A DNA stretch of 64,000 bases from Amoebophrya sp. A120 (GCA_905178155.1 CAJINV010000015.1:2067730-2131729), one strand, 5' to 3'; positions 1 to 59,772 are shown, counted from the first letter of the stretch. Program-made: numbers and translations. The notes: generated from the letters alone by a model not told the origin.

Positions 1-1795
1 CCGGGCTGGTAATGCCGCCGGTGGCGCCGTCAACAACAGCAGGAAGATCTTCTTCCGTATCGCCCCCATCGCCATCTTCTTGTCCCCCCGCCACATCTGG
101 TTCTACTCCCTCCTCAGCTGGCGTTTGCTCCGGCGCTTCCGTTTCTACTTCATCTTCGTGCGGTGACGTTCCGTCCTCGGGCGAAGATTCATCATCCGGA
201 CTTTGTGGTTCCTCTGTTTGCTGTTCCGCTTCACCAGGAGGAGCACCCGCTGCACCATCACCACCATCCGCTTCAACCTCTTCCTCCTCTTTCGAGCCTC
301 CCCATGGAAGAGGGCCGTCAAAAGAGTCAAATGCGGCAGCAGCTGCTTCGTTTGCCGCCTGAAAGAGGTTTTCCGCATGCGAGAGAGAGTCGAGAATCCA
401 GCTGGAAAGCTGTTTTTCAATCTTGTCCGTTTGCCGCACGAGCCAGGCTGGCGCGCCGCCCAGCGTGGTCGCCCGCGTCAGGAGTTCCATCACGCAGTAG
501 GGGTTGTGCGTCACGCCTGCTCTTGCGCACTGGGCCGCTGTCTCGGTGTCGTCAGAAGCGAAACTGCCCGTCGCGGTCACCAAATTGTCAATCATTCCGT
601 CATCCACGGTAACGGAGCCGGGGCTGTGAAGCATCAAATCAGCCTATGCATTGCAAAAGCACAGCTATCGCTATCGTACCGGTTGTACAGCGCCTACCTG
701 CTAGTAGTTCTAGACCTTAGGTTCTTGCGTGATACAGTCACAAAAAATTATCAATTACCTTATAATCGAAATTGTTCTGGGAGTGAGACAAAAGATCTTG
801 GCTGTGCACATCATGATGCTGCGGGGCAGCAATTACCAGTACGACTGCGATACTTGTTCTTGTTTTGCGATTGATACATCAGTCACATCGACGAGGCCAG
901 CTTCAACTTCGGATTGGAGCTCTGCGGCCACTTCCTCAGGTGGGGTGCCGAATGGTGGCGGCGGGCCGCCGTCCACGATTTCCGGAGGGGGGTGATCGCC
1001 CAGGCTTCCGCCCTCGCCCGGACCACCTGCGGCCGGTTCGCCCGCATCAGCCGGTTCGCCCGCATCAGCCGGTTCGCCCGCATCAGCCGGCTCGCCCGCA
1101 TCGGCCGGTTCGCCCGCATCAGCCGGTTCGCCCGCATCAGCCGGCTCGCCCGCATCGGCCGGTTCGCCCGCATCGGCCGGTTCGCTCGCAGCCGGTTCGC
1201 CCGCGGCCGGTTCGCCTTCAGCCGGTGGCCCATCGCCGTCGGCCGGTGACTGGCTGCCCGCCGGTTCCCCGTCAGCTGGTTCGCCTTCCGGCTTGTGATT
1301 CGGGGAATCAACCACACTGTCGTCCTTGTCCTTCGACCCTTGGTCACAAGGATTGAATTTCTCTTGCATCTGAAGCACACTAGTGGCTGATGTTGCCACT
1401 CCAGAAGTTTCGCCCATTGGTTCCCTCGCCTGTTGCATGATCGGAGATTTTGTAACGGAGCTGCTTTTCAGACTCCTCTCTCGTTCCTGGTTTTTCCTAA
1501 TCTTCGTGGAGGTAAGCGAGCGTCTGAGTTCGCGACCTGCTGCTTGCGTCGTGTCATCATCCTTCCTGCTCCGAGCGGGTGTTCGCGACACGCTTTGCTG
1601 GTGGAGTTTTTGAGAGAGTTGTAAACCGGACGCAGCATCATGACCAGCGTTGTTGAGAAGGAGAACAAGGGCAAGGGGGAAAAGCGCCGTCGCTCCTTGC
1701 TTGCGGGGAAAGCGCAGTGCCCGGTGATCTGCCCACTCCGCCTTCGACTGTTGCGACACGGCGCAAGGCATTGTTGTCCCCTGCGGCTCCGACAT
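1..1795 (-). CDS. Secreted acidic low-complexity protein with GEPADA repeats; 3' end runs off the window; exons ~877-1795 and <1-639
   Basis: ORF 833-1795 has a hydrophobic N-terminal segment. Removing element 645-876 plus 5 nt joins it in frame (VTD|DLMLHSPG) to a frame that stays open toward the window start. Confidence 0.7.
645..876. mobile_element. Degenerate family-B TIR introner
   Basis: TATGCATTGCAAAAG...TTTTGCGATTGATA; flanks CAGCC/CATCA (decayed); removal restores frame. Confidence 0.7.
1032..1225 (-). repeat. 18-bp coding tandem repeat (GEPADA, ~10 copies)
   Basis: GCCGGTTCGCCCGCATCA-type unit repeated. Confidence 0.95.
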
Positions 1796-2728
1796 TGTGC
1801 TTTTGTGGGTGAACGAAAAACGACGTGGACAAAGATCAAATTGATAAATTATCGAAGGGGTACAGGTACTAGAAGTTGCACTTTATTAACTTTCTAAATC
1901 TTATCTCCCGTTCGAAATATGCTTTCGTGTTGAAGGGGATGATCTAGCTTTGGCACATCACCACGTGTGTCGTTGACAAGAGTCGTGGATATGCTAATCG
2001 TATGGAAACCTGGAAAATGGTTTCGTGATATTGCATTCCAAATAAAATTCCGTTCGAGTCACACAGTGAGATTTTTACTTCCAGCTTTCGTCGAGATTAC
2101 ACCAGGTGGAATTCATGCTAGTCGCCGACGAGGATGCTGGAGGAGGACGTATCTTCACGCAGTACAACTAGTACGGGTATTACAGTACGATGAAAAACGA
2201 AGCACTACAGAAACAACTGTCATTGCCTGGCGAACGACGACGCGTAGAAGGAACGAACGAAAAAACGATAGATGAAGGACGATCAAAGCTGCACGGACAA
2301 GAGCAAGACAAAAACAGACTACAGGCTTTTTACTTGTTTCTAGAGCCAGAACTTTCATTTTCGAAACGAAATAGAGATAGACGCTAAGTGTGCACGATAA
2401 AATGAAATTCGTCCACCTCGCGGGGATGCGGCTGTGTCAAGACCCATATCCTGCGACGCCTCCAGCGAAGAAAAAACCAAAACGAGAATCACAGTGGACG
2501 AGTACACTGTAACTATTAAAGATCAGATCTTTGATAATATCTGTTCCGTCTAAAAAGGCATAATAGAAAAAATTTTTCCGCAATTGCATTTCTTGTTCTT
2601 CTTGTTGCAGAAAACATAACATCTGCAGCAACAGCGCAAATTGATCTCACCATGGGACAAACTTCTAAAACTAAACACAAGCCAAAAATTCGAGGCTTCA
2701 GCATCTCTTTCGCCCTAGTAAAACTTTT

Positions 2729-5523
2729 CTATTTCTTCTCAAAGGAAACGATCTGTGCAGCCGGTGTCGAACTACCTTTCGCAGCATCTCCAGCAGCAGC
2801 ACCTGATTCAAGACCTAGACCTTCCCCACTTACGGCAGCATTTCCCGCCACCGTTGAAGATGACAGTGGTGCGCTTTGCAGGGTTGACGAAGTGATGAAA
2901 TTTTTGTTCCCAAAACTTGCCGTGCTCATGTCGTAAGAAATCAGTGGTCTCTGCTTTTTGTTTTGCTCGTACTGGATTTTTCTTTCCATTTCGTCAAAAG
3001 GAGTGCCAGTGGTCGTAGTGCCCTCTCCAGCTGTGCCAGTCTCTGTGGCTGCTCCAGCTCCCGTGTGGACGAAACTGTTTCTGTAGTTGGCCCCAGCGGA
3101 TCGACGTGGTGTTCCAGCACCGCTGCCGTCATTGTCGTAGTTGAGAGGCACAAGCGAAATCGAAGTTGTGCAAGAGACTATCACCGCAAGCGCCAGGAGG
3201 GTCAGCACCAGCATGACGGAGACGAGGATCAAAGCCAACAGCAGAGAGCTCATCTTCTTTGGCGGCTCACTTTCGTTGGGGTTGTTGTTGGTCGGGTCGT
3301 TTACGTCTTTCATCTCCACTTCGCTCTTGTCGCTGGAATCTGTAGTCCCTCGTTGTCCTCGTCCAAACCACGTTCTTCTTGTGGAATCTTGTTTTTCATT
3401 TTCAGACGAAGACCCCAAAAGGGCTTCAGTCGAGGGTCGTGTTTGTGGTTCATCGTCTGGGTGAAAAATACTGCTTCCACCTCTTGTCCCGCCACCGCTT
3501 GTTGTTGTTCCGTGTCCGTTGTTACTGAACTGCGCTGGGTGTAGAGTATTTTGATCAGTCTTATCCACTGACACTGTGGCTCCTGATTCTGTGGTCGTAC
3601 TACTGTTATAATTCCGGTCGAGCGGTTCTTCGTTCCTTGTTGCCGCGTCGGATATAATTCTTGCGGTACCATGCAGGTTCCTCGCAGGTGCTGCATCTGT
3701 TGACGCACCTCCATCGGACAACATCCAAGGTGACTCTTCAGAAGTAGGCCTCGAGGTGGTACTAGACGTAGTTCGTGTGGTTGGAGGTTCATCTGCTTCT
3801 GGTACTGGTTGTGGCTCTCCTGCTTGCGCCGGATCCGTGCCATAATTGGCAGTTGCCATTCCACGCAGATCTCCAGGAATACCAGGTCCTGGCTTTTCCT
3901 CTTCACCCTGAGGGTAAAATCCAAGTTGCCCTGCAGGTCTAATTGGACCGCGTTGAGAATTTGCTGCTCCCTGCTCGCTATGCATTGCAAATATGTCTGG
4001 GTCTGGAAACTTGTGATGCTAAGTGGCGATGATTGAGCATACTCCTGAGAGCAGCCAAACATGCCAAATTTTCAGGACGCTTCCTCATGTGTAATTCGCA
4101 TGATAAACTGCGTTTTTGCATGACAAAGAATTCGCGCTTCCGCTTTTGTCGGTCACGCAATACAGATTTCATAGGAGTGCAAAACACGCAATACAGATTT
4201 CAATTTTTCCAAACCCAAACACATTTGCAGTTGATACTCGAGGTCCACGCTCGACCGTTGGAACGCTGCGCACACACTATACCGGTCTTTCACAAAACGA
4301 TTGTATTCCGCCCATTCTATAAAGCCGCTTGCTGTACCGTCCAAGATACCATCCACACACCGGAATAAATCCTCCGCAAACTCCATTTGCGTCTCAAAGT
4401 CGTTAGTTCCGTCGCTTATGTTTCCGAACGCGTTGGCGCCGCCGTCCCGGAACTCAGACAAAGAAATTTTGCTCCCATCAAAATCCCATAGCGCCAGTGC
4501 TGCAAAGTCCGGCAACGGTTCAGGCAATCGGGTTTCCATGTCGGTTATTCTCAGTGCGACGCGGCTTCCACTGTTATGATCATACGCGAGGCTCTTGCAG
4601 AGACAGGCACGGTGGAAATGTCCGTTTGCGTCTCTCACGGTCCCTCCCGCCACCCAGTAGGTCAGTGCGCCGTATTCTTGTTTGTTCAAATACCCGCGAG
4701 CATTGTCTTCGGTTTGTGGATCGTCCAGCGCATTGAAGACTCCGATCGTTTCATGTCCATACGCTTTCTCCCACTCCGAAGCCTCTATTCTGCCGTCGGC
4801 GTGGTTGACTGAAGTGCTGATGCTGTCCCACGGAACCGGTCCCTCAGCTAAAATTCTGTCGCGAAACGACTTCGGATCGGGGAGAGATTGGATAGCAAGC
4901 TCCACTCGAAACGACTTCGGAATTCTGTCGCGAAACGACTTCGGATCCACCAGAGAACGGGTTTGTTGCTGTGCAGCTATTTGGTCAACACCAGAGCCAC
5001 CAGCTGCTGTCTTTCCATTTTCCACTCCTGCCTGCGCTGCATGGTCAAGCTTTTGCAGTGCCGAAGATGGTTGCTGGCTCGATGATGAAGATGCGTTGCT
5101 ACTTCCAAAGACTCGTCTTGTGCGAGCGAGCAACGACTGTTTTTTAGACTTCTTCCTGTGTGCCCGCCGAAGATGTCGTGTTTGCAACTGCTGCTCGTCA
5201 GGGGAACCTGAACGGCCATCGGGAGGGAGATCCTGATGATCATGATGTCGCTCGCGGTCGTGCTCATTCCAAATCTGGACTGCACTCTTGTTCCCTAGCT
5301 TACGTGCGCAAGCGATTCTGTTTCTGTCGACAAGAAAGATAACAACAAGGCTGTTGACAAAATTACGTTTGCCGGCCCAAACTACGGGCTGCTTACTTTT
5401 GATTTTCAAGAAGACCATAGTTTGTTGAGATGAGCAAGATTTTCTCAGGCGCACGACCAGATAATTCAATTTACATACGTACGAGAAAATAAATGCTAAT
5501 GGGGAACCATCCTGCTCCCGCAT
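2729..5523 (-). CDS. EF-hand-like single-pass membrane protein; exons 4237-5523 and 2729-3973 (start may be ATG 5418)
   Basis: EF-hand-like loops DGRIEASEW, DFDGSKISLSEF, DGTASGFIEWAEY; TM helix LLLALILVSVMLVLTLLALAVIV; junction DLE|QGAA in frame. Confidence 0.75.
3979..4236. mobile_element. Family-A TIR introner
   Basis: TATGCATTGCAAATATGTCTGGGTCTGGAA...TTCCAAACCCAAACACATTTGCAGTTGATA; TSD CTCGC/CTCGA. Confidence 0.9.
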
Positions 5524-6289: not shown

Positions 6290-9200
6290 TCACGATTTCC
6301 TCGGAGCAGGAGGAGCCACAGGAGGAACGACTACTTTCGGAACCTGCGGCTTCAAGGGCCGGAAATCCATTGCGTTAGGGATAATCGGCGCCGCATTTTC
6401 ATCCTCGTCGCTCTCTAAACCCGCGCCGTCCAACCCCTTGGCCCAAAACCTTTATCAAACAAAAAAGTGTTAATGTCAACGGTTTTGACAGAATGCAGTC
6501 ATGCATGACAGATTTTGCGTAATATGCATGCTATGCATGACAAATTTGGACACGTTTTGTGACGCGTCACTGCATCACAAATTCCGTTAACGTGAACACT
6601 TTTTTCTGTGATAACCTTCCCGGATCCACCATGGTTCCCAAATTGCTATAACTAGCCATCATGCTATTCGCCGCAGCACCGGGACCTCCGGCAGGGACAC
6701 CGCCGAGGGCACCGGCATTGTTGAAACCACTTCCAGGCGGGAAAGCTGCAATTGACCGGTAGCTGGTTAAGCTGTTAGAAGCAGCTCCTGCAGGCATAGT
6801 GCCAGAAGGCGGAACTTGTACTTCCTGCAGCCTGGAAAAATTGTTTGTGGTTGGACTTGTTCCGCCGGACAAGTTGTACTGCGCACTCTGTTGTGTGCTT
6901 AGATCGTAGGAACCAATTTGCTGGCGCCCCGCTTGGAGATGTTCTCGGGTGTCGCCGTGTAACAATTCCCGCTGCCGCGCAAGGGCGCGAGTTCGGGCGG
7001 CTTCGTTTTCATCATCCTCGTCATCCTCCCCTAGCAGCTTCTGTTCGTAGCGCACTATGAACAGAATCACGGAAAAAACGCAACACAAGATGGCGATGGT
7101 GAAGATCGTGCAGAGGCACTTTTGGTTGCTGTTGTCAGTCGTTTCAACATCTTCTGCCGAGTCCTGATCGGAGTCTTCTACTCCGGCTTCCATTTGTTCG
7201 TCGTCCTCGTCCTCGTCACCGCAGAAAAAAGAGCGGCCGCATTCTTGCAGGCCTGTGCTGCCAGTGCCACTTACTGCCGAAGATGGATCATTTTCTGTGT
7301 AATTGTCTGCATTTCTTGCGCCAGCGCCGTTCGAGGCTGGTACCAGTTCAGCGCTCGCGCCCCCCATCGCAGGCCTGTTACTATTGGTCTTCCCAGCTCC
7401 TGCTGTATTTTGTTCAGACGGGGGCGATTGCGGCTTACCGGTCGCAGTAGACGTGGTGGCCGTATTGGTGATACTGGTGGTTCTTGGAAGTGTGGTAGCA
7501 GTTGTGCGTGGTATTTTTGTCGTGCTGCTTGTACTAGTGCTTGAAAATACTACGACCGATGTGGTGCTAATACTAATGCTTGGAATATCATTTTTTCCGG
7601 TGGTAAGAGTGGCGTTTGGAATTAATGTGGTGGTAGGTCCGCTTTGAATTATAAGAATTACGGTCGTGGTAGTTGTGTTTGTAGAAGTTGTGGTGGCTGC
7701 CGTCGAAGCTGTTCCTGTCGGTGTGGTCGCGGGAGCTACACTTGCCTTCGTTGTGCTGGTCGAGGCAACTTCTTCAGTCGTCGTTTCAGTCGGAGAGGTT
7801 GTGGAAACGAGATGGGCGGTAGTCACTGTCACGGGGTCGAGCTGCGTTGTAGAAGGCGTGAAAATAGTTGCTACAAGTCCGTTAGGCGTCGTGCTGCTGC
7901 TGCTTGTACTATCAACTTCTCCATCATAGCACCATAGTGGCGGCTCGTAGACAGTACCTGGCACAACTGGTGGTGAGGGTTGTACTTGTGGGATGGTCGT
8001 CTCTTCTTGGCCTGGTTCCGTTTGTGGAGCGACCGCCGTGGGCACCGGGCGCGGGGTCGTAGTAGAAGATATTGATATAGTGGGAGGACTATGACACCAC
8101 CTCTTCAGTTCAGCTTCTTTCCTATGCATTGCAAAAGTATCGCTCTAATGTAGTACCAATACAGCCTGCATCTCTATATGCAAAAATCTTTTTCAAAACA
8201 AATTTATTAATATCGAAAAATGAAATCAATTTGTCATCGACTGACGATCGATCCTAAGAAACACGTAGATCACTGATGTCATGCAGTATTCATCTTGCAA
8301 GATGAATTACGTACGAAATTGCGCTCCTTTTGCCATGGATACCTCCAAATTTCCAGGATGTCGTATTCTGGAACGTTCAGGTGTGACACCGCGTCCGTGA
8401 CATCGATGTTAAATTCGGCAAATATGTCGGAACTACCCGCGTCAGTCCCAAATATCGTGGACCACTCCGGATGGAGTGAAATCTTTCCGTCATCAGAGAT
8501 CGCATCTTTCAGCAATTCCGGGTGGTGGAAAAATTTCCGCCGAAAGGCCAAGGGATCGGGCAGCCTGTAGTCGATGATTGCGTTTATCCTCTCCGTGTTC
8601 AGTAGCTCGGGTATAAGTAGTGGCAGCTTGATGTTATGGTCGTGCTCTTCTTTGCTCCTTTTGCGCTGGACGTGCTCTTGTTCTTTGTGCAGCAAAGACG
8701 AGAAAGTGTTAAATTCGGCATAGTCCAACACGGGTCCTGCTGTATCGATATGGTTGGAATCTATGGCGGGCTCGTGATGTTTATTTTCGGCGAAGGCCGA
8801 GCTGAGTTTGGTAGTTCGAGCTTCGCGTCTGCTCTATGGATGTGTCAGGATCGAAATCGACAAAATCGAAAAATTTGTGATGCATAAAATGCATGACGCG
8901 AAATACGTGTGTTGCAGAGCAGGCAAGTGAGGCCGATTGTAAGCCTGTTTGGGGTTATAGCTCGAGCTGCTAAACCGGCATGAGAGAACCAGCCTTCTTT
9001 GCCTACACAGCATTACAAACTGGATTTAGGCGCACCCAGAATTTGTCATGCGCCACTTAGAAACTGGGTCCGAACTGGAATCCATTTTATGCATGACAAA
9101 TCATTTCGATTTTGTCAATTTTGATTCTGACACTTCCATATGCTCTTTCGTAGTAGTAGACCTGCTCTTGCAGCACGACCAGCAGAAGAAGAAGCCGCAG

Positions 9201-11149: not shown

Positions 11150-16286
<5,137 letters not shown>

Positions 16287-17400
16287 GGTTGATTTGTACT
16301 ACCACTTCCTCGAGTGGTCAACGTAGAAGTTGTGGACAAGTATTAGTCAAGTTGTGAAGTAGATTTTGCGCGAAAGTGCGTGACGGATTTGAGTGTCGTA
16401 TTAAAGGTGAGCAAGATAAAGCTCTTCGTCCGGATCGTACTCCTTCTACCACAAAGCTGATTGCTACCACGACGGCCCCCTTTCAAATTGAATTGTACAC
16501 TTCAAAAGTACTTACAGCTTGTTATGTTCTATATGTTTCATCTGTTCTAGGTACAATCCTAGCACAACCTGAACCAGTCTGCCTCGTCACGCGAGTTGAT
16601 CACCCCTACCATGCTCCTGTAATATCGTTGCTTCACAACAACTACAAATCATCATTCGGCGCAGCCCACTCATGAAGTTAGTTACCGCGTCGTGCACCCA
16701 ACCCCAGCAGCATCAAGTAGAACAAAAGTGCTGGTGACGCTAGAACATGCGGAAGTCGTTGCTAGCTGCTTGTAATCAGTGCCCTGGAGGAGCAGCACTA
16801 ACTTGCTCCTCCGTGCGTTGTGGCACTACTTCGTTGTGGTACTACTCCAGTGGAGCTTCTTGTCGTGTCATCTTTCATTGATTATGTACAGGAGTAGTTC
16901 TTGCGGGAAACGGAAACGCCGTGCTCATGTTGATTGTTCTTTCATTTACGTGCGGCTGCATGTACAACAAATCTGTCTACAGGTGCATTGAAACATCGAT
17001 GGGTTGTAAAATTGAAAGAAAAAGCCCCCACAGGAAGCACTTCATATCGAAGCATAATTGACCCCCGTGTCTTGCTTCGCCGCACTTCTTGGAAGCTGCG
17101 AGAACGCGTTGCAAGATGAGTTTTCTGCTCCATTCAAAATCAAAAAATAAAACTTGCCACTCCTGTGAATTCGAAAAAATCTACCACAGCTAGAGCTAGA
17201 TACATACCTCTAGGTACTAGCGTAAAACTAAAACAAAGTCGAAGTAGAGTATCTTGAGTAAAACTGAAACAAAGAAGAGCATCGCATGTGCTAATGCTGT
17301 GATTTGTCGTAACTTATTCTGCTGTTCTGCGCTTGCTTGCGGTTAGCTTAAAACATAAACTTAAACAAGACTGATAAAATTAACTTGACTCAGACTTCAT

Positions 17401-34029: not shown

Positions 34030-34161
34030 TGTCGTGGGTGTAGCTCTACTGGAGAGTTTTTTATTGGGAGGTTGAATACCGCCACGCGCACAGTTCTCGC
34101 GTCCAAAAAACGCGGCCAACCCTTACCCGCTGTCAATGTGCTGCCGCGCAGCGATGACGAC

Positions 34162-34469
34162 TATGGAACTGTCAGAATTGAAATTAACAAAGTTGAAATA
34201 ATTTGTGATGCATAAAATCTGTACCAGTTGGACCCACAGTTTCCAATCGGCGCATGACAAATTTTCCTGGCCTCTGAAGCAAGTCTGTCATGCTGTTTAG
34301 GGCAAGATGGCTGCTCCCTGTCATGCTAGTCAGCAGCCCGATGCTTGACCCTTACCAGCACTAGAATCTGCCTCCCTTGCGCCTTCAGCAATAGAATCAG
34401 TCTCTGTGTCGCATTTTATGCATTACAAATTATTTCAACTTTGTCGATTTCAACTCTGACACATCCATA
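34162..34469. mobile_element. Family-C TIR element upstream of the probable start codon (5' UTR or intergenic)
   Basis: Family-C TIRs; TSD ACGAC/GCGAC. Confidence 0.9.
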
Positions 34470-41300: not shown

Positions 41301-44300
41301 AGGAAAGAACGTCTGCTGTTTTATTTCTACCAGTTCCCGTTCCGAGAGGACCCATCGCTGTTGAAGATTTTGCGAAAAACGACTCCTCCACCCCGAGTTA
41401 TCAAATGCAAAAGTGTCTGGGTCTGGAACCTTGCCAGGTTTGTCATGCATATTTTGAATGACTCATCATGATGTCCTCTGTGATGCATGCTCCCGAGTGA
41501 CAGAATTTTAGAGGGCTTTGTGATGGCTCTAACGCATGAGAAATGCCCTCTCCGCGTAGCACAAACTGGAGTCCTGTTGCTGGTCATGCAATGCAAATTT
41601 TTTTAGGATCCAGAGACAGCATCACAAGTTTAGAATCTTCCAGACCCAGACATTTTTGCATTTGATACAAACAGTTCACGGACAATCGGCGAAGCGAATT
41701 CTGGTTCCGCGGGGGAGACTCGTAAACCGATGGTGGATATAACCTGCTCATGTATTTTTACAATCTCAGACATTACCACAACTAGAAGATGGAAATCTGT
41801 TATGCAAGACCTGCATGATCATCTAGCCCACTCCTACAGGATTGCGCATGACAAGTTTCGGAGTCCCATCAAAGCGCACTACAATTATCTTGCGAAATTT
41901 GTATTGCAGAAAGTGGAACGCAGTGTGAGTCTGTCATGCTCATCGTGCCAGACAAAGCCCAAGCCCTATTTTTGTAACGTTTGAGATGGTAACCGATTTG
42001 AGCAGGTCATAGTGGAAAGCCAGGGATTCGGAATGCGGACGAAGAACGAACAAACTGCGTCGGCTATTACACTGAAAAATGGCCCCACCCCCAAAGTTGC
42101 AAAAATTTGTGATGCGAAGCTTCCAAATGAACACTTTTGGTCATGCATGAAAGGAGTATGAACCTTTCTGGTGCAGAGTCTAGGCGTAGGCGTGTATCGC
42201 ATCGCTTGATGCATGACAAGCGCCGCTTTTGCTGGGATCTTTTGCAATGCAAATTTTTGCTATTCACTTTCACGATTGGAATAAATCTGTGATGCTGATA
42301 GATGCAAGAGGGCGAGTGTTTCACTTGGCAAGGTTTGCAATACAAATGCTCTCAATGATTCGGGAGTGCTGGGGGAATTTTTTATTGCAATATCGGCTTC
42401 TGCTCCTGTCGGAGGTGGTGCTGTCGCATATCCTGTGCAAAAGTATCGCGCTCGTAGTAATTGCAACCATGCATTACAAATCTTTTTTGAAGGTAAATGA
42501 ATCCGCATTGCAAATTTTATTTCTCATGCTGAGAAAATTTGTCATTCAATTTATACTATCACGATGCTTTTGCATTCGATATCGCATCAGAAACTACAAC
42601 TTCCGGACTCCCACTCAGCGTCGCCTTACAGTAGACCGCGTTTTTGATCTGCAGTGCGGTTTTCGGCACGGCGCTGTTGCCAGAAAACGGAGTCGCGGAC
42701 ACCACTTTCATCCACAGTTCTGTAGTTCCAGATGATAAAGTTGTGCTGGAGGTCCCATATGGGAGTGTCAGGATTGAAATCGTCAAAGTTGAAATGGTTT
42801 GTCATGCATAAAATGCGACGCAAAAAGTGACTCTATTGCAGAGGACGCATGGGAGGCAGATCATAGTCCTGGTAAGTGTCAAAAGTTGGACTGCTGACTA
42901 GCATGACAGAAGGCAGCTCTTTTGCCCTAAACCGCATGACAGACTCGCTTACAGGACCGGGAAGTTTTGTCATGCACCGACTACAGGCTGTAGCTCTAAC
43001 TAGTATCCGTTTTATGCATGGCAAACTATTTCAACTCTGACGATTTCAATCCTGACACCTCCATATCCCAGCAGTAGCCATCTTCGCGGAAAAATTCTTC
43101 AAATCCTTACACGTATACTTGATGAAGAAATCTTCCTTTTCATCACTTTCACTGCTTCCAGAAGATGATCCACTAGCTTTCATCGCTTTCCTCGAATACA
43201 GCGCCAGTTGACTCGCATGTGGCTTCAGGTCCGTTACCTTAGAACCGATGAAGCAGAGGGAAGAAGTTGTGGAGGTGGCCGAGCTGGAGGAGGAAACAGT
43301 TCCGTATTGCTTCAACTCACTGGTCAAGGACGCAGACACTTCCGTTAGCTTACTGGTCGGTAAACACAAAACCACGCCCGTGGTGTGGTCGGCGGTGGTG
43401 GAGGAGAGCTCCTTCAGATGTTGAACAGGCTTGGTTTTTGATGATGAATCATCCTGTGTCGTTGATATTTCCTCCCCTTCCACGGCCATTTTGTTCGAGG
43501 AATTTTCACTGCTCGTCGTCTCTCCGAATGAAAAGGGACTCGGAAACTTGTCCCCCGTGATCCGGATCGCCTCTCCCGGCGCGCGGGCGGCCGCTTTGGT
43601 GTACAGAAACGAGTCGCCCCAGACGACTTTTGTAGACGATAGTGTTGTAGTTGAGCTAGTAGTCGTTGTGCCTGTGCTGTCACTTGGTAAAAAAACACGA
43701 CTCTCGTCCACCACCGGTATTTCTACCTTCACGGTTACTAACACCGTTCCGGCTTGTGGTTTAGAAATGGTGGTGTCCAGTGGGTATCCGAAACTGTCCA
43801 GAGCCTCGATTTTGATGTTGTTATCGTCTCCGATCTGTTTTGTCACGTGCTCCCCCATATGCAGTGCAAAAGTATTGCACTCGTCGTAATTGCTATCGAT
43901 ATCGTGCATGACAAATATCGCTTTTTAGGTAAAATAGCATTACAAATTGCATTTTTCTTCTTGAGAAAATTTGTGATGCAATTCCTACTAGTACAATACT
44001 TTTGCAATGCATACCCCAACTGGGAAAAAAGCCACTCCCTGTACGCTGTCGCAAGGGATTTACCGAGAATGCTGTCGAAGAGGGGGAAGATAGTGGTTTT
44101 GGTACTAGGACAAGTGGTAGCTGAAGCATTTTGATTCATCTCTATTCCTGCGGATGAAGTAGATGTTGCTTTCACCATAAACGCGTCGACGCAGTGTTTC
44201 GCCAGGGCGATCTTGCTCAGCAGCTCGTGGTTCATTTGTCGTGTTGGAGACGAGTTATCGGATGCTGATGTTGAGGAAAACACCGTCGGTATGGTCCGAG

Positions 44301-47300
44301 CGAAAAACGTCTTCCACTTTGGGTCGTAGACCTCGTGCTTGATGAAATTTGGACACTCCGTCACTGTGGTTTGCACTTGTGTCGTGGATGGAGAAGTAGA
44401 AGCTGCCCCGAAAACTTTTGATTTCCTGTAAGGCAGGTTGTCCAGGACTTCCTCGTTGTTTAACTCTCCGTATGCTGTATGGCAGGAAAAAACTGGTGTT
44501 CCACTGTGAACTACAACTCGTGATGCAAAGAGTGCCTCACACACTGGCTGCGCAAGTGTTTGTCTTGCTAGTGATGCAAGCCACAAGGTAACAACTTTTA
44601 GCCGTGTTTACTTCCAAGATGGGAAAAAATGACAGAGCATGCCAGATTTTCTATGTCACGCGTAACGTCAAACTTTCGATGGTGTAGACCCTACTGCAGC
44701 ATCAAAATCATCACAGTATTAAACAGGTTCATTTATTTTTGTTCGATATTCCCAGAGTTGGCAGCACGCGTCTCGGTTGTAGAAATTTCCGAATGATTCC
44801 TTGAAGGCGGCGAGGAGCGGGTCGTTGGTGTCTTGCATCACAGCTTGATCGCCAGGAGTGCCGGTGCCATTACAAACTAGCTCCTTACAGTAAACCACAT
44901 CCGACGCGCCGACGTTGGAGAAGAGGAATTCCAACTATCCAGGAAAAAACACGACCCATCCCCAACATCCAATTTGTCATGCAAAACGCGCAGGAGTTCC
45001 AATGTTTGTCATGCAGAAAATGGATGGGAGTACGTGTTTTTTCCTGAGAAGTACCAATTCCGACTCCAAGTTCTTCACTTTCTTCTTCATAGACAGAAAC
45101 CCATGATTCCCAAACTCGTCTAGCGCGTACGCCTGTACCAGCGGCCATTGCTCGATGGATTTCCCGAAGACCCCGACGGATTTGGTGTAGGCTGTATGAT
45201 TTTTTCTGAATGTGATCAAGTCGTGAGGAGGACTCAGCTGGAGGTGATCGTGATTCTAGTACAACAAGCATGACAAGACTAGCGCATCCATCATGCGATG
45301 TTGAATCCCGCACGACAAAAAAAACTCAACTTTAACTCTAACTATATACCTTCCTTCGTCGGCAACACCTGGCTCCCGGGCTGCTCCGCGCCAAACCCTT
45401 CCGGATAGTTCAGCGCCTGGATGAAGGCCTTGATTTTGATCAAATCGTAGTCGTCCCCCAGTTTCCCTTCCCTGTACCCCTTCGGATCGTTCAGAAACTT
45501 CTCGTTGATGCACTCCAAGCGGCAGCTCCACTTATTCTCGCTTGCGTTGAAAACTTCCAGGTTGGGCCACAGACACATCATATGAAGTGCAAAAGTGTCG
45601 TGCTTTGCATTTATTGCTCTAGTAGTTGTGATTGCATTACAAATTAGCTCAGCACGAAAGAGACGTCAAACGGAATTTCTCATGCTGATTTAGCTTAGGT
45701 CAGCGTTATTTGTCGTGCATGCTTGCAATTACAACTACGACGACGATATTTTTGCACAGGATACATCACCTCATGCAGCTGCTCCGCGATGGTGTGATTC
45801 GGGGCGAAGACGAACGTTTTGGACATGTGCAGGATGTATCAAATGTAAAAATGTCTGGGTCTGGAAGAATGCAACTTGTCATGCTAAATCTGAAGCATGC
45901 AAAAATCTGTGTTGCATGACTACAGCCGTTCAGTTTTGACCAAGTCGGGAGGAAGTTTCTCATGCAGGATAGGCATGAGAGAGATCGCGCAGAATCTGTC
46001 ATGCTAGGTCCTGCATTCCAGACCTCATGGGTCACTCATGGAAAAGCTGCATGACAAATCGCGCATTGTTCCGGACCCAGACATTTTTACAATCCATAGG
46101 ATGATAAAAACCTATGAGAGTGCACAACTCGTCCCCCTCTCGTCCCTTACTTGTCATGCAAAATATTACCAAATCCACGCCCTGCCTCTTGGCACTGTTT
46201 GCATGGCAAGTTCTGGCAGCGTACATAGCACGACAAGAGCCCTGTTCAAATTTGTGATGCAAAAACTACACTCTTACTGACGCTTGTCTTGCTGTTCATG
46301 CCGTACAAATGAGGCGGAGGAGGAGTTCTCGTGCACTCGGATAAAACCTCATCCCAATCCGTCGTGCACGAGCCGAAGAGGTTTTTGAAGGTGTTTGAAG
46401 ATCCCCCGGTAGTTCCAAAAATACCCCCACCGACATAATTCTCCCCGTCCTTATCCAATGCAAATATGTCTGGGTCTGGAAAGAACCTGTGATGCATGTC
46501 AGTGAATGGAAGCCCAAGCATGTCTGTGCATGACAGATTTTTCCGTGCTGGCTTCGTGTTGCGTATTCTGCATGACAAACAGCGTTCTTGCATGACAGAC
46601 AAGAGGAGCTCTTGCTGCCCGCGCAAGACACAGCTCAGCGTCACACTCACAACATGCCAGACTAGCATGACAAATCTCGCATTCTTCCAGACCCAGACAT
46701 ATTTGCAATGCACAGTCCTTCTCCTCATCTTCGCCTTCCTCCTCTGTGCTTATGCTGTGCAGAAGTATCGTACTCGTACTAATTGCAAACATGCATTACA
46801 AATGTTTTTCCTAAGGCAAAACAGCATGACAAATTCCACTTTCCTTCTTGCCAAAATTTGTGATGCAATTTAATATACTAGTACGATACTTTAGCAATGC
46901 ATAGTGCTTTCCGTCAGCCCAAATTGCTCGTCAAAATCTGCCCACGGATCGTTATGTATTGCAAAAGTGTCTGGGTCTGGAAAGTTGGAACCTGTGATGC
47001 TACCTTTGGACTCTACATAAAATCTGTATTGCATGAACAGCATAAGAGGTGCAAATTGCGCTACACGGAGAGGGCATTTCTCATGCGGTATGAGCATCAA
47101 AAATCCCTCGCAGAGGTTCTGATGCTAGGGCATGCATCACAGACCTCGTGGGTCATGGAATATCTGCATGACAAACTTCTGCATTCTTCCAGACCCAGAC
47201 ATATTTATGTGCATTTGATAATCGTCCTCTCTGCTCAATTTCGGCTGCGGGGCCGGTTTCGCTTCTTTCACGCCGATCTTCTCCGCGTCCTTCAAATTAT

Positions 47301-51031: not shown

Positions 51032-51420
51032 TATCCTGTGCAAAAGTATCGCACTCGTAGTAATTGCAAACATGCATTACAAATCCAGTTCCTAAGCAAA
51101 ATCCGCATTGCAGATTTCGTTTCTCATGCTGAGGAAATTTGTGAGAGCGGGGTAACAAAATAAAAAAAGAGGGCCGCGGGGAACCTCTTGTCCACCCGGC
51201 CGGGTGGACAAGAGGTTCCCCCCTTTCGCTGCCGGAGCGGCCGGCTCGCAGAGGTCCCCGCCCCCGCGTCGCCATGTCGGATCTCCCCCCTCGTCGTCGT
51301 CCGCCGCTCGCCGGGTGCGGAGATCCGACGTGGCAACGCGGAGGGGGACCTCGGCGAGCCGGCTGCCCCGGCAGCGAAAGGGGCAACATTTATACGAGTA
51401 TGATACTTTTGCAATGCCTA
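51032..51420. mobile_element. Family-B TIR element with nested double-hairpin insert (~51144-51387)
   Basis: TSD CAGTA/CAGTA; 44-bp perfect palindrome at 51178-51221. Confidence 0.88.
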
Positions 51421-53569: not shown

Positions 53570-53875
53570 GACCCACCCCGGGCTTGGGCCTCGCGCTAAG
53601 GTCTCCCGTCCACTTGGCTTTCTGCTGACTCTTTCTTGGAATTTTTTTGGATTTCTGAGAACTTTTTCTCGGAATTCTGTTGGAATTTTTCTTGGATTTT
53701 CTGGAATTTGTCGGGAATTCATTTGGAATTTCCCCAGCCACGACGCTATGACGAAATTCCAAAAAAAATTCTGACAAATGTCAAACAAAAGGTTGACAAA
53801 TTTCCAACAAACGTCAGACGCGAATGCAACAGGCCCGCGACCTTGGTCGCAACCTAGGTCGGGACCAGGGTCACA
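53570..53875. repeat. Degenerate ~11-bp GGAATTTT repeat tract ending in a hairpin; probable element remnant
   Basis: GGAATTT(T/C) repeats at 53638-53732; GACCTTGGTC..GACCAGGGTC at 53839-53872. Confidence 0.5.
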
Positions 53876-54553
53876 CAATACCAAAGGACGAACAAATACC
53901 CCAAATCTGCGCCATGCTTCATCTCAGTCGTGAAAGTCTTCTCCTTCATCTTCTGCATTGGAAAACAAGTGTCTGGGTCTGGAAATCTGCAATACTGATC
54001 GCTCCCTGAGTAGAAGATGCTTACTTCCATAAGTAGTCTAGCATGACAAAGTTTTAGCTGGAAGATTGTAAATAAATGAATGTGATACAAAATGAAAATC
54101 GAAAGTCACTGTTGTAAAAAGTAAATAAAAGAGTCGTAGTCATTGAATGCTTCAAGACGAAAGAATTGAATAGAGCAAATAGAAAAAGTAGAATATGAAA
54201 TCGAATGGAAGAATATGTTGAAGTTGAAAATCAAAATGCTTCTGTAATAATAGTAAACAAAATTGAATATGAGTTTGAAATTTAATTTCCGAAAGATACA
54301 GAAACAGACGGAAGGCGTCGTGGAATAAACGAAAGCATTCTTCTTCTTCTTTCTTGTTCATGATGTCCATCTTTCCTCCCTGCTCTTCTCTTTCCCTCCA
54401 CTTGAATGCTTGTGCTTGCTCTTCTACTTGCTGTTGCTTCAGCTGCTCCCGCAGAGGAAGGAACATATAAAAAAATAGGCAATAATTTTTTTTTCGAAAA
54501 GCAGCATCCTCACTCACCGTTGTCGTACTTTTCTGCACGGAAGGCAGTAAATG

Positions 54554-54882
54554 TATGGAAGCGTCAGGTTTGAAATCGTCAAAGTTGAAATAATTTGTAA
54601 TCCATAAAATGCCTTAGCCTTTTCCAAGCTGGAACCCAGTTTCTTCCAAGTGGCGCGTGACGACTTTCGGCGGTCCCTAAATCCAGTTTGTCATGCTGTT
54701 TAGGCAAAGAAAAGTGATTTTCTCATGCTACTTTAGCAGCTCGAGCTGTAACGACCCCAAACAGGCTTACAATCGGCGCCACTTGCCTGCTCTGCAACAC
54801 ACGTACGTACCTCGGGCCATGCATTTTATGCGTGCCAAATTATTTCAAGAACTGTGTCGATTTCAATCCTGACACATCCATA
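54554..54882. mobile_element. Family-C TIR element downstream of a stop codon (3' UTR or intergenic)
   Basis: TSD AAATG/AAATA. Confidence 0.9.
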
Positions 54883-55048: not shown

Positions 55049-58000
55049 TCAACCTCCCCCAGAAGCCGCTGCACCCGCGCCCGGGGACCCACCCGCCTGC
55101 GCGGCCTTATCAAGAGTAAAAATGTCTGGGTCTGGAAGATTTCTAGATTTGTCGTGCATATTTTCCATGACCCATGATGTCTGTGATGCATGCCGTAGCA
55201 TCACAGATTTTTAGAGCGCTTCCTCATACCTATTTTTCCGCATGACAAATGCCATCTCCGCGGAGCACAAAATCTACTCCTCTTCCTGAGCGTTGCAATA
55301 CAAATCTTTTTCGAATCCAGAGACAGCATCACAAGTTTAGACTCTTCCAGACCCAGACATTTTTACATTTGATAGGACTTGGAGACCCACAATTTCTTGA
55401 CCGCGGTGGAAAACAGTTTGTGGAACGCAGATCCCCCCCATCGATATCAAATGTAAAAATGTCTGGGTCTGGAAGATTCTGAGACTTGTCATGCATGTTT
55501 TGCCTGGGCCATGATGTCTGTGATGCATGCCCTAGCATCACAGATTTCTGGAGGGCCTCGCGATGCCTATTCCGCATGACAAATGGCCTCTCCGCGTAGC
55601 AAAAATTACACTCCCTTTGCTGCTCACGCAATACAGATTTTTTTGGAATCCAAATTCAGCATCACAAACACAAGTTGCATTCTTCCAGACCCAGACATTT
55701 TTACACTAGATAACCGAGCAACGTGCCCCATGTTCGCGATGAGCTTCCCCAAAACCGACCTGGCCTATCAAATGCAAAAATGTCTGGGTCTGGAAACTTG
55801 TGATGCTAAAAGTGAATGGTAGACGGACTGCAATACGCAGCTATGCATGACAAATCTTCCGGCTCCCATGTCTTACGTATTCCGCATAGCAAACTGCGTT
55901 TTTGCATGACAGGTAAGAGGGCCTTTTCGTGCCTATGCAATACAGATTCTCAAGTCATGCCAGACAAGCATGACAAACTTGCATTCTTCCAGACCCAGAC
56001 ATTTTTACAGTTGATATGGCCACAGCTTGCACCAAACCGAGACCCCAGCTCTTCAAAATCGCGAGGTCAATGTAGTGTCGCAAACCAGATTCGTCCGAAG
56101 TTAAGAACGTATAAATGAGAATCCGCAACGCCGCCGGAAGGCCCAATGCGGTGGTTCTGGGGGTGTAGAAACGAAGAAACGTGCTCACTAGCAGCTTGGT
56201 GACGGCCCCGGCCACCATGGAGCAAATGGAAACGTGAAAAGAATGCGTGACGAAATGAAAAATGCTTTTCATAAAGGGCACCTTTTCCACGACAGTTTCC
56301 AACCAGTTGCGTGCCTGTTCTGGCGTTGTGTTCTTGTCTATTTTGGAAATTGCCGTTTTATCCTGGTCGTCTCCTTGAGCAGTTTGAGACGCAGACGGGA
56401 ACTTTGTGTCCAAGACCGACTGGACATTTTTCGTCATGCTCTCGAAGAACCTTCCAAGCGCGGAGGAACTCTGGACAGCGACAGCCCCCGCACTGGGGTT
56501 TTGCTCTTTGTCTTTGACTTTGTCCACCTCCACCTTCTCGCCAAATAATTTCTCCTCGAGGCCCTTTAAAGCTTCTGGATTTTCAACAGCCTCTTGGACC
56601 TTGATGTTGTCTCCTGTCACCGTTCGCTCAGCCAACTCCTGGTCCCACGTCTTCCCGACGCCACCTGGTGCACCAGAACCGTCTTCCAACAAGGAGCCCG
56701 CCCACGCCTGCAGGTCACCCGATTCCGATTGCGCCAACGTCCGCACTTGCCCTGTTGTAGCTGCGTCAAGATCATCCGTTTGCAAATCGTCAACATCATC
56801 TGCTTATGGATTGTGAAAGTGTCTGGGTCTGGAAGGTTGGAACTTGTAATGCTAGCCTTCCATACCTAGAAAATCTGTATTGCATAACCAACAAAAGTCG
56901 CAGCCTCTTTTGTCATGCAAAAACGCAGTCTCTCATGCGGATTGCCTAGTATGAGAAAACGTTTTGGGAAGTTGTCATGCCGGACTGCATTCGGTAGTGT
57001 GTTCATCATGCACATTTTAGCATCACAAGTTTCCAGACCCAGACATTTTTACATTTGATACTGCTCGGCGGCGGGACAGGAATTTCCTGGTTTGATGTTT
57101 CGACCTCGACGTCTTCAAATGCGGCGTCGTGCGTAAAAACGTGCCCATTCCAGAACTGTCATGCAGATTTACAATGAAGACAGGAACGTTTTTGATGCGG
57201 CATTTCCAGTCGTTTGTAGGAATTTGTAATGTTGTTGTGAAACAGGATAGTACGCAGATGGACATGGATTTGTAAAAATGCAGCTGTCCTTGTTGCCAAC
57301 TTGCACTATAGTACCTTCAGGACTGCAACTTGTCATGCGTGGCTCCCCAAACTCCTAGGCTTGTTTTGTAAAATCCCCCTCTTGATTCGTCTGGGGTGTT
57401 TATCTACTGGAAAAGAACAAATTAAAACACAGAGAAACTTCAAATTGCTATTTCCCATTCTGGGGTGGGGCGTTTTAACTTAGGATATGCGGAGGCTTTT
57501 GTTCTTCTCCCACAGCACTTCTGATCTCCTCGACGGCAAGATGAACACTACTTTCCAGGCCGTTTTCTGCTGAGCTCCTATCCTGTGCAAAAGTATCGTA
57601 CTCGTAGTAATCGTAGTCATGCATTACAAATTTCTTTCTCAAGTCAAATCCGCATCACAAATTTCATTTCTCATGCTGAGAAAATTTGTCATGCGATTAT
57701 TATACATTATATTCATGCGAAAAAAGAGGTAGACAGAGGGTCCCAGAGAGGTGGCCGAGAGGTCAAAAAGAGGTCGACAGAGGTAGAAAAGAGGTCGACA
57801 GAGGTGGAGAGGTGGCGCGGGACCCCGTTCGAGAGGGTCCGCGAGAGGGTGCGCGAATAAGGCCCGCAGTAAGCGCCCACCCTTAGGCGCCGCCTAAGTG
57901 GCACAGAGGGTGCAGAGAGGTCAAAAAGAGGGGGCGCGAGAGGTCGACAGAGGTGGAGGGAGGTGGCGCGAATAAGGGGCGACCTCTCGCGGACCCTCTT

Positions 58001-59772
58001 GGCCACCTCTCGGCCACCTCTGTCGACCTCTACCCGCGAGTATAGCCGGATTATTAGCGGGGACCCCAAAAGAGGTCAAAAAGAGGGTCTGCGAGAGGTC
58101 TGCGAGAGGGTAAAACACAAAGAAGCGGGCGCGAATCCGCATGGTGCTGCCAATATTTGCCATTGCAGGCCATTCGCGGACTTGTTTTCTTCGGCGCCTT
58201 TCCGCGCCACCCTCTCGCCCACCCTCTCGCGCCACCCTCTCGCGCCACCCTCTCGCGCACCCTCTCGCGCAACCCTCTCGCGCCACCCTCCCGCGCCACC
58301 CTCCCGCGCTACGCCCTCCCGCCGGGCGGCTTCTGTTCGCCCCCGGTGTTCTTTGCGGCTGCTCCCTGCGCAGAGCGCCCACAGGCGCGGGAAGCGCGCA
58401 AGTGGTCCTGCGGGTTGGCGCGGCGCAAACAGGGGGCAGGAATCCAGTATGTTTGGTTGTGCATAGGCCCTTGGCGTTGTGGTCCCATCGGCAAACAGTC
58501 TTGGCCCGGCCCAACAGCCTTGCGCTCCGGCGGCAGCCGGAGCATGGCTGGTTTATACTAGTACGATAGTTTTGCAAAGCATAGCTCCCCTGTTCCGACG
58601 ACGAGGAGGACAGCCGGCGGGCCAGAAAACCTTTGTTCGTTGCTGGTTCAACAACTATATGCTCTGCAAAAGTATCGTACTCGTACTAATTGCAAATATG
58701 CATGACAAATCTTGTTCCCAAAGCAAAACAGCATTACAAATGGCATTTGTCGTGCTGAGCTAATTTGTAATGCAATTTATACTACTACGATACTTTTGCT
58801 ATGCATAAACTATCGGGTCTACTGTCGTGACTGCGAGCGGCGCCGGGATGAATTGATGTGTTTCATCGGCCGCGGTCGTGGTTTCGAGGAAGCTGCTCTT
58901 CTTGCCGTTCTTTTCGCCGGGGTATCAAGTGCAAAAGTGTCTGGGTCTGGAAGATTGCCAGGTTTGTCATGCATATTTTGCATGACCCATGAGGTCTGGC
59001 GTGTAGGACATAGCATGACAGATTCTGCGTTAGTTCTCTCATGCCTATCCTGCATGAGAAACTGCCTCTCGATTAGGTCAAAAGTGGACAGCTTTTGGTA
59101 ATCATGCAACACAGATTTTTACATGATTCAGATCTAGCATGACAAGTTGCTTTGTTCCAGACCCAGACATTTTTGCATTTGATACGGGGAACAAGTGCTC
59201 TTGGATTTGCTTTATGATTTTGCCGGTCAAGGCCTCGCCATTAAGGACCTTCAGGCGGTTATGGGAGTGTCAGGATCGAAATCGTCAGAGTTGAAATAAT
59301 TTGTGATGCAAAAAATGCAACCCACAGAACAATGCCTGTCTTGCATAGTAGGCAAGGGAGGCAGATTGTAAGCCTGTTGAGGGGTAAGAACTGAGCTGTT
59401 AAAGTAGCATGACAGCAGGCGTCTTCCTTATCCAAACAGCATGACAGGCTGGAGTTCACTTCTACCCAAATTTACCATGCGCGGCCACTTGGAAGCTCGG
59501 TTACAACTGGCATCCATTTTATCTTATGCATGGCAAACCGTTTCAACTTTGACAATTTCAATCCTGACACTTCCATAGAGGTGATCTTTGGCCATGTCAA
59601 AAAAATTTCCGTAAATCGTGTCGCCCAACTCTTTGACTTCTTTCGGAGCATCATCATCATCATCATCATCATCACTGGTTGTGGTTCCTTCCAACAATGA
59701 TGATTCATCTCCGGCATCGTATGAATGCTTAAAATATAATTTGCCCCCCCATAAACCATGTTTTATTTTCAA
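55049..59772 (-). CDS. Hypothetical protein with SSLLE/SSFLE motifs and amphipathic/hydrophobic C-terminal helices; 8 TIR introns plus one other; 5' end not found
   Basis: Junctions in frame after removing element plus 5 nt (KDHL|LKVL, LFP|GEKN, PIV|VEPA, AVA|RSVL, VAR|WGGS, VSKS|AQAG); stop TGA at 55049-55051. Confidence 0.7.
55108..55374. mobile_element. Family-A TIR introner
   Basis: TSD GGCCT/GGACT. Confidence 0.92.
55445..55712. mobile_element. Family-A TIR introner
   Basis: TSD ATCGA/ACCGA. Confidence 0.92.
55766..56016. mobile_element. Family-A TIR introner
   Basis: TSD TGGCC/TGGCC. Confidence 0.93.
56805..57060. mobile_element. Family-A TIR introner; empty site in paralogue at ~52384
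   Basis: TSD CTGCT/CTGCT. Confidence 0.95.
57579..58583. mobile_element. Family-B TIR introner with nested insertion
   Basis: TSD GCTCC/GCTCC. Confidence 0.92.
57697..58551 (+). mobile_element. Nested hairpin-ended element with AGAGG-rich and 13-bp (CGCCACCCTCTCG) minisatellites
   Basis: Absent from the family-B consensus; stem GCTCCGGC/GCCGGAGC at 58524-58543, 8 nt from the end. Confidence 0.65.
58658..58807. mobile_element. Family-B TIR introner
   Basis: TSD AACTA/AACTA. Confidence 0.93.
58923..59184. mobile_element. Family-A TIR introner
   Basis: TSD CGGGG/CGGGG. Confidence 0.93.
59260..59577. mobile_element. Family-C TIR introner
   Basis: TSD GCGGT/GAGGT. Confidence 0.92.

Follow-up and report, generated by a model that had tools for sequence, protein, structure and literature searches.

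Introner elements in a 64-kb window of Amoebophrya sp. A120: almost certain exact removal from RNA and a probable fixed, staggered cut register

The closest described system comes from the same organism. According to the available text of Farhat 2021 (PMC7789003), the genome of Amoebophrya sp. A120 contains 29,850 introner copies with RNA-seq support, their inverted repeats consist of TAT, seven variable nucleotides and at least three As, and direct repeats of 3-5 nt lie over the borders (a 5-bp example is given in the legend of Fig. S19). In that text no clear boundary signature is described, and the border is left unknown. Here, a window of 64,000 nt of this genome was analyzed (GCA_905178155.1, CAJINV010000015.1:2067730-2131729; "the window" is this whole stretch). 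It contains 61 inverted-repeat elements with the ends TAT…ATA, which span positions 645-59577. It is as good as certain that they are the already known introner elements of Farhat 2021, with which they share the organism, the TAT+7+AAA ends, the direct repeats, the repeated families and the non-canonical removal from mRNA. An earlier, sequence-only reading of the window had drawn this link, and ends, repeats and host indeed match. Its claim of novelty was not borne out, since the end motif, the direct repeats and RNA-seq are in Farhat 2021, and a 5-bp target site duplication (TSD) and TA termini are in the available text of Gozashti 2025 (PMC12130899). The elements are thus of the same kind as the published ones, with the difference that all repeats in the window measure 5 bp and that one cut register was inferred. 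What is new is this likely fixed register, staggered by 1 and 4 nt, together with an unequal reading of the two ends.

Three further systems are similar, each cited from the available text. In the tunicate Fritillaria borealis, introns derived from miniature inverted-repeat transposable elements (MITEs) also have terminal inverted repeats and a TSD, mostly depart from GT-AG, and undergo precise removal (PMC13326754, PMC11282704). There, AG/AC and AG/AT classes, a YAY end and a duplicated U2AF are found, whereas the first and last intron bases are free here. The nonconventional introns of Euglena (PMC12501133) also have paired ends with unequal spacers and coexist with GT-AG introns, and a MITE origin was proposed for them. 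However, their motif is CAG/CTG (CDG/CHG) with N3 and N5-6 spacers, compared to TAT/ATA with spacers of 1 and 4 here, and the purine at the downstream exon start of Euglena has no counterpart in a purine bias in A120. Euglena introns are also characterized by release as full-length circles. In SOS splicing (PMC12779559), DNA transposons leave the mRNA via inverted repeats without GU-AG. That process is an imprecise rescue route that produces indels, whereas removal here is exact and routine, with the limit that minor forms would be invisible in proteins. Compared to a U2-type intron, the GT…AG ends are absent from nearly all elements, but U at +2 and A at +3 are present under the probable register 4. 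In the literature covered, including the available parts of PMC12005148 and PMC11453091 and excluding subscription papers, no paper was found that fixes the splice register or chemistry of A120; the figures and remaining supplement rows of Farhat 2021 may say more about the border.

The catalogue was built from an exact-repeat scan, end-profile scans and partner searches, and two elements were added via the deposited protein P0122. The elements sum up to 18,492 bp, i.e., 29% of the window. On the sense strand, the 5' end is TAT in 55 of 61 and the 3' end is ATA in 60 of 61, and TA..TA termini were present in 60 of 61 at either end. The flanking 5-bp direct repeat was exact in 40 cases, and it had one mismatch in 14, two in 4, three in 2, and four in 1. 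The scan for TAT..ATA with an exact 5-bp repeat yielded 44 pairs, 33 of which had an inverted-repeat score of at least 8, and no such strong pair was found in any of 10 shuffled windows. Because the catalogue was partly selected on the 5-bp repeat, the repeat length was checked separately in 135 metagenome loci (L001-L135), each carrying one end motif, in which element pairs were picked regardless of the repeat. An exact 5-bp repeat was found for 169 of 208 pairs, compared to 1, 0, 1 and 0 pairs for the lengths 4, 6, 7 and 8, and 25 and 2 pairs for the lengths 2 and 3. Repeat lengths other than 5 were ruled out by the counts in the window and the loci. These numbers agree well with the sequence-only reading, which had described about 60 elements from at least 10 families (9 clusters and 9 singletons were found, see below), TAT…ATA ends in nearly all cases, and a 5-bp flanking repeat. 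Its length range of 109-330 bp fits 55 elements (109-334 bp), and six longer ones (386, 389, 892, 1005, 1075 and 2029 bp) had gone unmentioned.

The metagenome contigs contain the same end family in exact copies, with 285 distinct elements across 490 kb. None of the loci L001-L135 matched the genes of the window over a long stretch, and the end motif was not found in viral contigs. In the window, an end-like match at 26685 was dropped, because it sits within the P0122 coding sequence, and an unpaired right end at 52240 was left out of the element count.

At 48 of 59 junctions, the longest two-sided open frame resulted solely from the deletion of an element together with 5 nt; this deletion was tied at 2 junctions and lost at 9. 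Deletions with 4 or 6 nt were rejected in this comparison. Stops in all three sense frames were present in 51 of 59 elements. The window exons are 100% identical to two proteins deposited as Amoebophrya sp. A120, P0121 and P0122, which belong to the published transcript-based annotation and thus are an indirect read-out of the RNA. The deletion of element plus 5 nt was the only fitting one at 22 of 22 junctions of P0121 and at 21 of 21 junctions of P0122, including the element of 2 kb. The proposals that removal of an element and one repeat copy restores the frame, and that one rule is shared across the families, therefore both stood.

The RNA level was approached with assembled contigs. Contig X3/12, with a length of 3,511 nt, aligns to 38104-44473 in pieces with zero changed letters. 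It skips 43853-44013, which is 156+5 nt, so the junction of the element 43858-44013 is directly visible. Its unseen middle parts of 582 and 224 nt, together with the total length, match the prediction for the absence of ten elements plus 5 nt each and one GT-AG intron. The contigs of X1, for which the library kind is unrecorded, pass through the elements unspliced at an even depth of 42-45. Elimination at the DNA level, like that of the internal eliminated sequences of ciliates, would also be compatible with TA-bounded ends and exact removal, and a rare excised allele could be missed, because contigs drop rare variants. However, the X1 contigs retain the elements, unlike a ciliate-type eliminated sequence, and the element-free contig X3/12 also lacks a GT-AG intron, so that elimination from the DNA is extremely improbable. 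Exact removal at the RNA level, which the sequence-only reading had preferred to a DNA event, is almost certain. That the element plus 5 nt leaves the RNA and stays in the DNA was shown with contigs for one gene and with deposited proteins for two genes.

From the raw RNA runs X9 and X10, just 178 and 9 reads could be placed; these fall at repeat positions, and the exons were left uncovered. The element at 44478-44748 is spanned by an unspliced X3 contig with a depth of 7.3, next to the spliced contig with a depth of 70.2; this could be due to partial retention or to DNA in the run. The features of the two host genes, with the protein or contig that reports on each, are the following.

17404..34029, minus strand, host gene of P0122 (3,480 aa): 21 elements and 1 GT-AG intron
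17814..18888, minus strand, long element, 1,075 bp, ends resemble 27023; P0122
18952..19160, minus strand, element, cluster F, 209 bp; P0122
20080..20315, minus strand, element, cluster D, repeat mismatch at base 5; P0122
20373..20643, minus strand, element, cluster B2; P0122
22374..22482, minus strand, element, cluster E, 109 bp; P0122
22614..23505, minus strand, long element, 892 bp, cluster-A ends, GC-rich insert; P0122
23548..23800, minus strand, element, cluster B1; P0122
24458..24616, minus strand, element, cluster A; P0122
25092..25200, minus strand, element, cluster E; P0122
25718..25937, minus strand, element, cluster D; P0122
26011..26123, minus strand, canonical GT-AG intron, donor GTATAG; P0122
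26270..26575, minus strand, element, cluster G, 5' end TAC; P0122
27023..27173, minus strand, element, 151 bp; P0122
27845..27994, minus strand, element, cluster A; P0122
28099..28326, minus strand, element, cluster H, 5' end TAC; P0122
28538..28673, minus strand, element, cluster A; P0122
29061..29269, minus strand, element, cluster F; P0122
29325..29511, minus strand, diverged element, 187 bp; detected via P0122
31165..31314, minus strand, element, cluster A, 5' end TAC; P0122
31502..31835, minus strand, diverged element, 334 bp; detected via P0122
32711..32968, minus strand, element, cluster B1; P0122
33010..33335, minus strand, element, cluster C; P0122
38341..50404, minus strand, host gene of P0121 (1,493 aa, DNAAF9-like): 22 elements and 2 GT-AG introns
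39173..39434, minus strand, element, cluster B2; P0121, absent from X3/12 by length arithmetic
39490..39715, minus strand, element, cluster D; P0121, absent from X3/12 by length arithmetic
39890..40071, minus strand, canonical GT-AG intron, donor GTAAGA; absent from X3/12 by length arithmetic
40472..40736, minus strand, element, cluster B1; P0121, absent from X3/12 by length arithmetic
40794..41179, minus strand, element, 386 bp; P0121, absent from X3/12 by length arithmetic
41399..41667, minus strand, element, cluster B2, 3 repeat mismatches; P0121
41738..42011, minus strand, element, 274 bp; P0121, absent from X3/12 by length arithmetic
42065..42392, minus strand, element, cluster G; P0121, absent from X3/12 by length arithmetic
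42429..42581, minus strand, element, cluster A; P0121, absent from X3/12 by length arithmetic
42758..43065, minus strand, element, cluster C; P0121, absent from X3/12 by length arithmetic
43858..44013, minus strand, element, cluster A; P0121, X3/12 junction seen directly
44478..44748, minus strand, diverged element, 271 bp; P0121
44936..45053, minus strand, element, cluster E, 5' end TAC; P0121
45192..45349, minus strand, canonical GT-AG intron, donor GTATAT; P0121
45581..45763, minus strand, element, cluster A; P0121
45837..46098, minus strand, element, cluster B2; P0121
46113..46343, minus strand, element, cluster H; P0121
46452..46714, minus strand, element, cluster B1, 5' end TGT; P0121
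46751..46903, minus strand, element, cluster A; P0121
46953..47220, minus strand, element, cluster B2; P0121
47477..49505, minus strand, long element, 2,029 bp, cluster-F ends, repeat-rich insert; P0121
49542..49799, minus strand, element, cluster B1; P0121
49829..50151, minus strand, diverged element, 323 bp; P0121
50191..50339, minus strand, element, cluster A; P0121

An exact repeat permits six cut places, and the register was defined as the number of upstream repeat bases (D1-D5) that are kept, from 0 to 5. The protein can discriminate between registers because the two repeat copies differ at diverged junctions. Five junctions were informative, and the allowed registers were 2-5 at 41399, at least 4 at 44478, 4-5 at 49829, 0-4 at 20080, and 2-4 at 31502. 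When the registers 0, 1, 2, 3, 4 and 5 were applied uniformly to 43 elements and 4,973 residues, 5, 5, 2, 2, 0 and 2 residue differences resulted, i.e., only register 4 reproduces both proteins without a difference. Register 5 was excluded by 20080 and 31502. A single fixed register is therefore probable, with an intron of the form N·TAT…ATA·NNNN that is cut 1 base before and 4 bases after the element. Judged from the five junctions, the upstream exon would keep D1-D4, the intron would consist of D5, the element and D1-D4, and the downstream exon would begin with its own D5. Alternatively, the removal could be exact with the cut made wherever the repeat allows, and the agreement with register 4 would then be due to few data and aligner habits. 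The small number of five informative junctions fits this, and the legend of Fig. 3 of Farhat 2021 (PMC7789003), in the available text, has splice sites that are variable relative to the hairpin and an unknown border. However, the five allowed ranges have exactly one value in common, which is 4, a repeat mismatch cannot be slid over without altering the joined sequence, and 31502 has no GT-AG register that could pull the alignment. A variable register is thus improbable.

GT-AG ends are present in 1 of 61 elements at register 4 and are available in 3 of 61 at any register, as expected from the earlier statement that most repeats allow no GT-AG register. Any GT/GC/GA-AG or AT-AC register is available in 10 of 61 elements. 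Under the fixed register, U is found at donor +2 in 61 of 61 and A at +3 in 60 of 61, and both numbers hinge on the inferred register 4. The donor then reads N-U-A-U-(C/G), similar to the GUAUA donors of canonical introns in these genes; the three canonical donors read GTATAG, GTATAT and GTAAGA. In the available part of Table S4 of Farhat 2021 (PMC7789003), the nine most frequent A120 boundary pairs all begin with N-T, which agrees with a register-4 intron, and the top nine pairs of A25 all begin with TT.

In the end logo, T100 A98 T92 were found at positions 1-3 and A75 A80 A97 at positions 11-13. Predicted folding revealed at least 10 end-to-end pairs in 52 of 55 elements, and in the predicted stem the positions 1-3 and 8-14 pair well, while the positions 4-7 pair poorly (22-40 of 59). 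Transposon ends that are built of an outer and an inner part would give the same pairing pattern. The sequence-only reading had envisaged a symmetric stem closed by TAT/ATA, and this picture was not supported: the probable cuts fall 1 and 4 nt beyond the stem, its positions 4-7 pair poorly, and the two triplets are conserved unequally. End conservation was determined with 313 elements, i.e., 61 from the window and 252 of the 285 from the metagenome (33 were left out as unstranded). At position 1, a deviation from the first T was found in one element, compared to eight with a deviation from its mirror A (p 0.038). At position 3, the third T deviated 12 times and its mirror A twice (p 0.012), and at position 2 the two ends did not differ. 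A transposase sees the ends as mirror images, yet the conservation on the sense strand is unequal. An A seven bases before the 3' end is conserved and is a candidate branch point. G had seemed to be selected as the first intron base (window, 5 of 6, p ~0.02), but this reading was rejected, because the control gave 8 of 14 at other repeat positions and the loci gave 2 of 5.

The best explanation for the whole is that known A120 introners are removed in a fixed staggered register by a relaxed form of the organism's own spliceosome, guided by the paired ends; it is proposed tentatively, with a confidence slightly below even. The inverted repeats, with a core from about position 8, would pair and hold both cut sites, and the 3' cut would be set by distance and not by AG. 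The major spliceosome would read the N-U-A-U donor with the first base free, and it may branch at the A at -7. This spliceosomal catalysis is predicted with reserve, as nearly an even call. In the available text of Farhat 2021 (PMC7789003), the genes for PRP8, SLU7, U2AF65, U2AF35 and U1-70K are listed for A120, and Fritillaria is a precedent, because it processes inverted-repeat introns without GT-AG by the spliceosome (PMC13326754, PMC11282704). A more far-reaching version, that N·UAU…AUA·NNNN is the one code for the tens of thousands of non-canonical introns of A120 and is read by a U1-less spliceosome, is rather doubtful. In that case, the donor positions +2 to +4 plus one adenosine at -7 would be recognized, and the 3' site would be found by its distance from the RNA stem.

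The same register could also be produced by a second, spliceosome-independent system, in which the paired ends serve as the reference for an endonuclease, with cuts 1 nt before the stem and 4 nt after it, and the exons are sealed by a ligase such as RtcB. A route of this type was proposed for the nonconventional introns of Euglena (PMC12501133), and it was demonstrated in an imprecise form for SOS splicing (PMC12779559). This is a serious possibility, only slightly less probable than the spliceosomal one. The bases at both cut sites are free, either orientation of an element works, inserts of up to 2 kb are without effect, and ordinary GT-AG introns coexist in the same genes. In the available texts, the Euglena code also has a paired motif at the unequal spacers N3 and N5-6 (PMC12501133), the trigger of SOS splicing, which depends on AKAP17A, CAAP1 and RTCB, is the pairing of inverted repeats (PMC12779559), and U1 small nuclear RNA (snRNA) was not found in A120 (PMC7789003). 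However, N-U-A-U resembles a donor and the mirror bases are conserved unequally, which fits a reading of sequence, TAC is tolerated at the 5' end although it disrupts the third pair, whereas a 3' change that would retain a wobble pair is rare, and SOS splicing leaves indels (PMC12779559), whereas 43 of 43 junctions are exact here. RtcB is without mention in the available supplement text of Farhat 2021 (PMC7789003), and no homology search for a ligase or nuclease was made.

Several points weigh against the spliceosomal explanation and its premises. The register stems from an annotation (BLAT, EST2GENOME, Gmove) at five junctions and not from reads. At 20080, register 4 is GT-AG, so that an annotation bias is possible, and just 31502 (registers 2-4, none GT-AG) is free of a GT-AG pull. 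BLAT slides toward GT-like letters, which could also produce the N-T excess of Table S4. That the X3 run is RNA is just a guess, and for X3/12, length sums are the basis of 9 of the 10 junctions. The p-values for the asymmetry include no correction for the three positions or for related copies, which are not independent; for position 3 the metagenome loci alone gave p 0.18, and 5 of the 8 changes at position 1 retain a U-G pair. Among 252 elements, G was not favored as the first base of the intron (A 76, G 66, C 59, T 51), repeat base 5 being a purine in 142 of 252 at a sense background of 0.56, and no enrichment of AG at the intron end (18 of 252). The TA ends are fixed by the transposase anyway, so that the likeness to a donor may be a coincidence. 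To our knowledge, a spliceosome that is blind to the first and last bases exceeds any known one. No transposase was found in the window's open reading frames (ORFs) that were scanned or in the metagenome loci. In addition, U1 snRNA was not detected in A120, according to the available text of Farhat 2021 (PMC7789003).

Interior alignment of 55 elements below 420 bp grouped them into 9 multi-copy clusters, with 9 singletons left over. Both orientations are represented in five of the clusters (8/3, 6/3, 6/2, 3/3 and 2/1), and all host frames are on the minus strand. The motif GCAT(G/C/T)ACA(A/G)A had 126 matches within elements compared to 7 outside, and it was present in 55 of 59 elements, in both orientations and in unrelated families. 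This suggests one superfamily with a putative common binding site. The elements probably originated as non-autonomous, integrase-like DNA transposons (Ginger or IS3EU-GingerRoot-like), which would insert in either orientation and duplicate a 5-bp target, D1-D5. Family 38 of A120 in Gozashti 2025 (PMC12130899) is a Ginger family of about 810 bp with a 5-bp TSD, TA/TA termini and an integrase-like ORF. No such ORF was found in the window elements, and as the comparison was made by description, they may be of a different family. The IS3EU/GingerRoot group (PMC10045372, available text) likewise has TA..TA termini and short terminal inverted repeats and is an integrase-related DDE clade. However, its TSD is usually 6 bp, compared to 5 bp here (exact repeats in 0 of 208 pairs at 6 and 169 of 208 at 5), and therefore the elements were not filed there.

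Five elements (47477-49505, 57579-58583, 22614-23505, 17814-18888 and 51032-51420) are of the short type with big GC-rich or repeat-rich inserts, which are possibly other, nested mobile elements. The three long elements in the two host genes (47477, 22614 and 17814) are likewise removed exactly. In the search for a transposase in long elements, nine ORFs of the window had no Pfam match, and 3 ORFs scanned in 47477-49505 had none. Of five long candidates from the metagenome, three lack an ORF of 90 aa, and the other two seem to consist of mispaired ends that flank host exons. The remaining features of the window are the following.

645..876, minus strand, element, 232 bp, diverged, 2 repeat mismatches; reading frame only
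3979..4236, minus strand, element, cluster B1, 258 bp
6453..6613, minus strand, element, 161 bp, ends resemble 40794
8123..8341, minus strand, element, 219 bp
8835..9140, minus strand, element, cluster C, 306 bp
14760..16298, minus strand, VPS4 open frame once two elements are removed
15617..15873, minus strand, element, cluster B1, within VPS4
15928..16080, minus strand, element, cluster A, within VPS4
34162..34469, minus strand, element, cluster C, upstream of the P0122 annotated start
51032..51420, strand unassigned, element, 389 bp, cluster-A ends plus insert, host frame not shown
54554..54882, minus strand, element, cluster C
55108..55374, minus strand, element, cluster B2
55445..55712, minus strand, element, cluster B2
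55766..56016, minus strand, element, cluster B1
56805..57060, minus strand, element, cluster B1, paralogous empty site near 52244-52540
57579..58583, minus strand, long element, 1,005 bp, cluster-A ends, repeat-rich insert
58658..58807, minus strand, element, cluster A
58923..59184, minus strand, element, cluster B2
59260..59577, minus strand, element, cluster C

The host genes VPS4 and DNAAF9-like, which had been named from the sequence, were both verified. The best match of VPS4 is from A25, with 72%, and in a comparison of the spliced VPS4 with eight relatives there was no indel at either element junction. P0122 had no Pfam family above cut-off and gave only weak hydrolase and cysteine-rich matches; a weak conotoxin match is below the cut-off; among 1.8 billion representatives it had three distant matches. 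A homolog search with the exon 33337-34122 gave nothing. Upstream of the annotated start of P0122, a first coding exon that the annotation lacks may lie at 34120-34500; it has a hydrophobic beginning and the donor GTAAG, and it spans the element at 34162.

An empty site of the element 56805-57060 was found in a paralogous exon piece near 52244-52540. It has a single repeat copy, as a target duplication predicts, and the piece is either such an unoccupied site or was copied from RNA. At 52115-52540, the right half of a cluster-C element is joined to this paralogous piece (88-92%) of the exons 56669-57226. The region 50740-54000 contains several other dispersed short repeats of about 60-75 bp that are 82-88% alike, with fragments that are similar to the cluster-B end but have no TAT…ATA ends. 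Two intergenic tandem arrays were also found, 25 copies of a 41-bp self-complementary unit with 99% identity at 11692-12732, followed by 6 copies of a 40-bp unit at 13235-13478.

In the published view, the borders of A120 introners are variable or unknown. The fixed register predicts the intron ends, the branching adenosine and the sequence of a circle junction, and it thus offers sharp tests as well as a rule for the re-annotation of A120 genes. It also accounts for transposon sequence taking up 29% of a region dense in genes with no residue changed. If the more far-reaching version with one code is true, any transposon of this end type would become a scarless intron at any site and in either orientation. 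If the fixed register is true genome-wide, either a spliceosome would work without information at the two terminal bases of the intron, or an alveolate would have a second splicing system that is exact.

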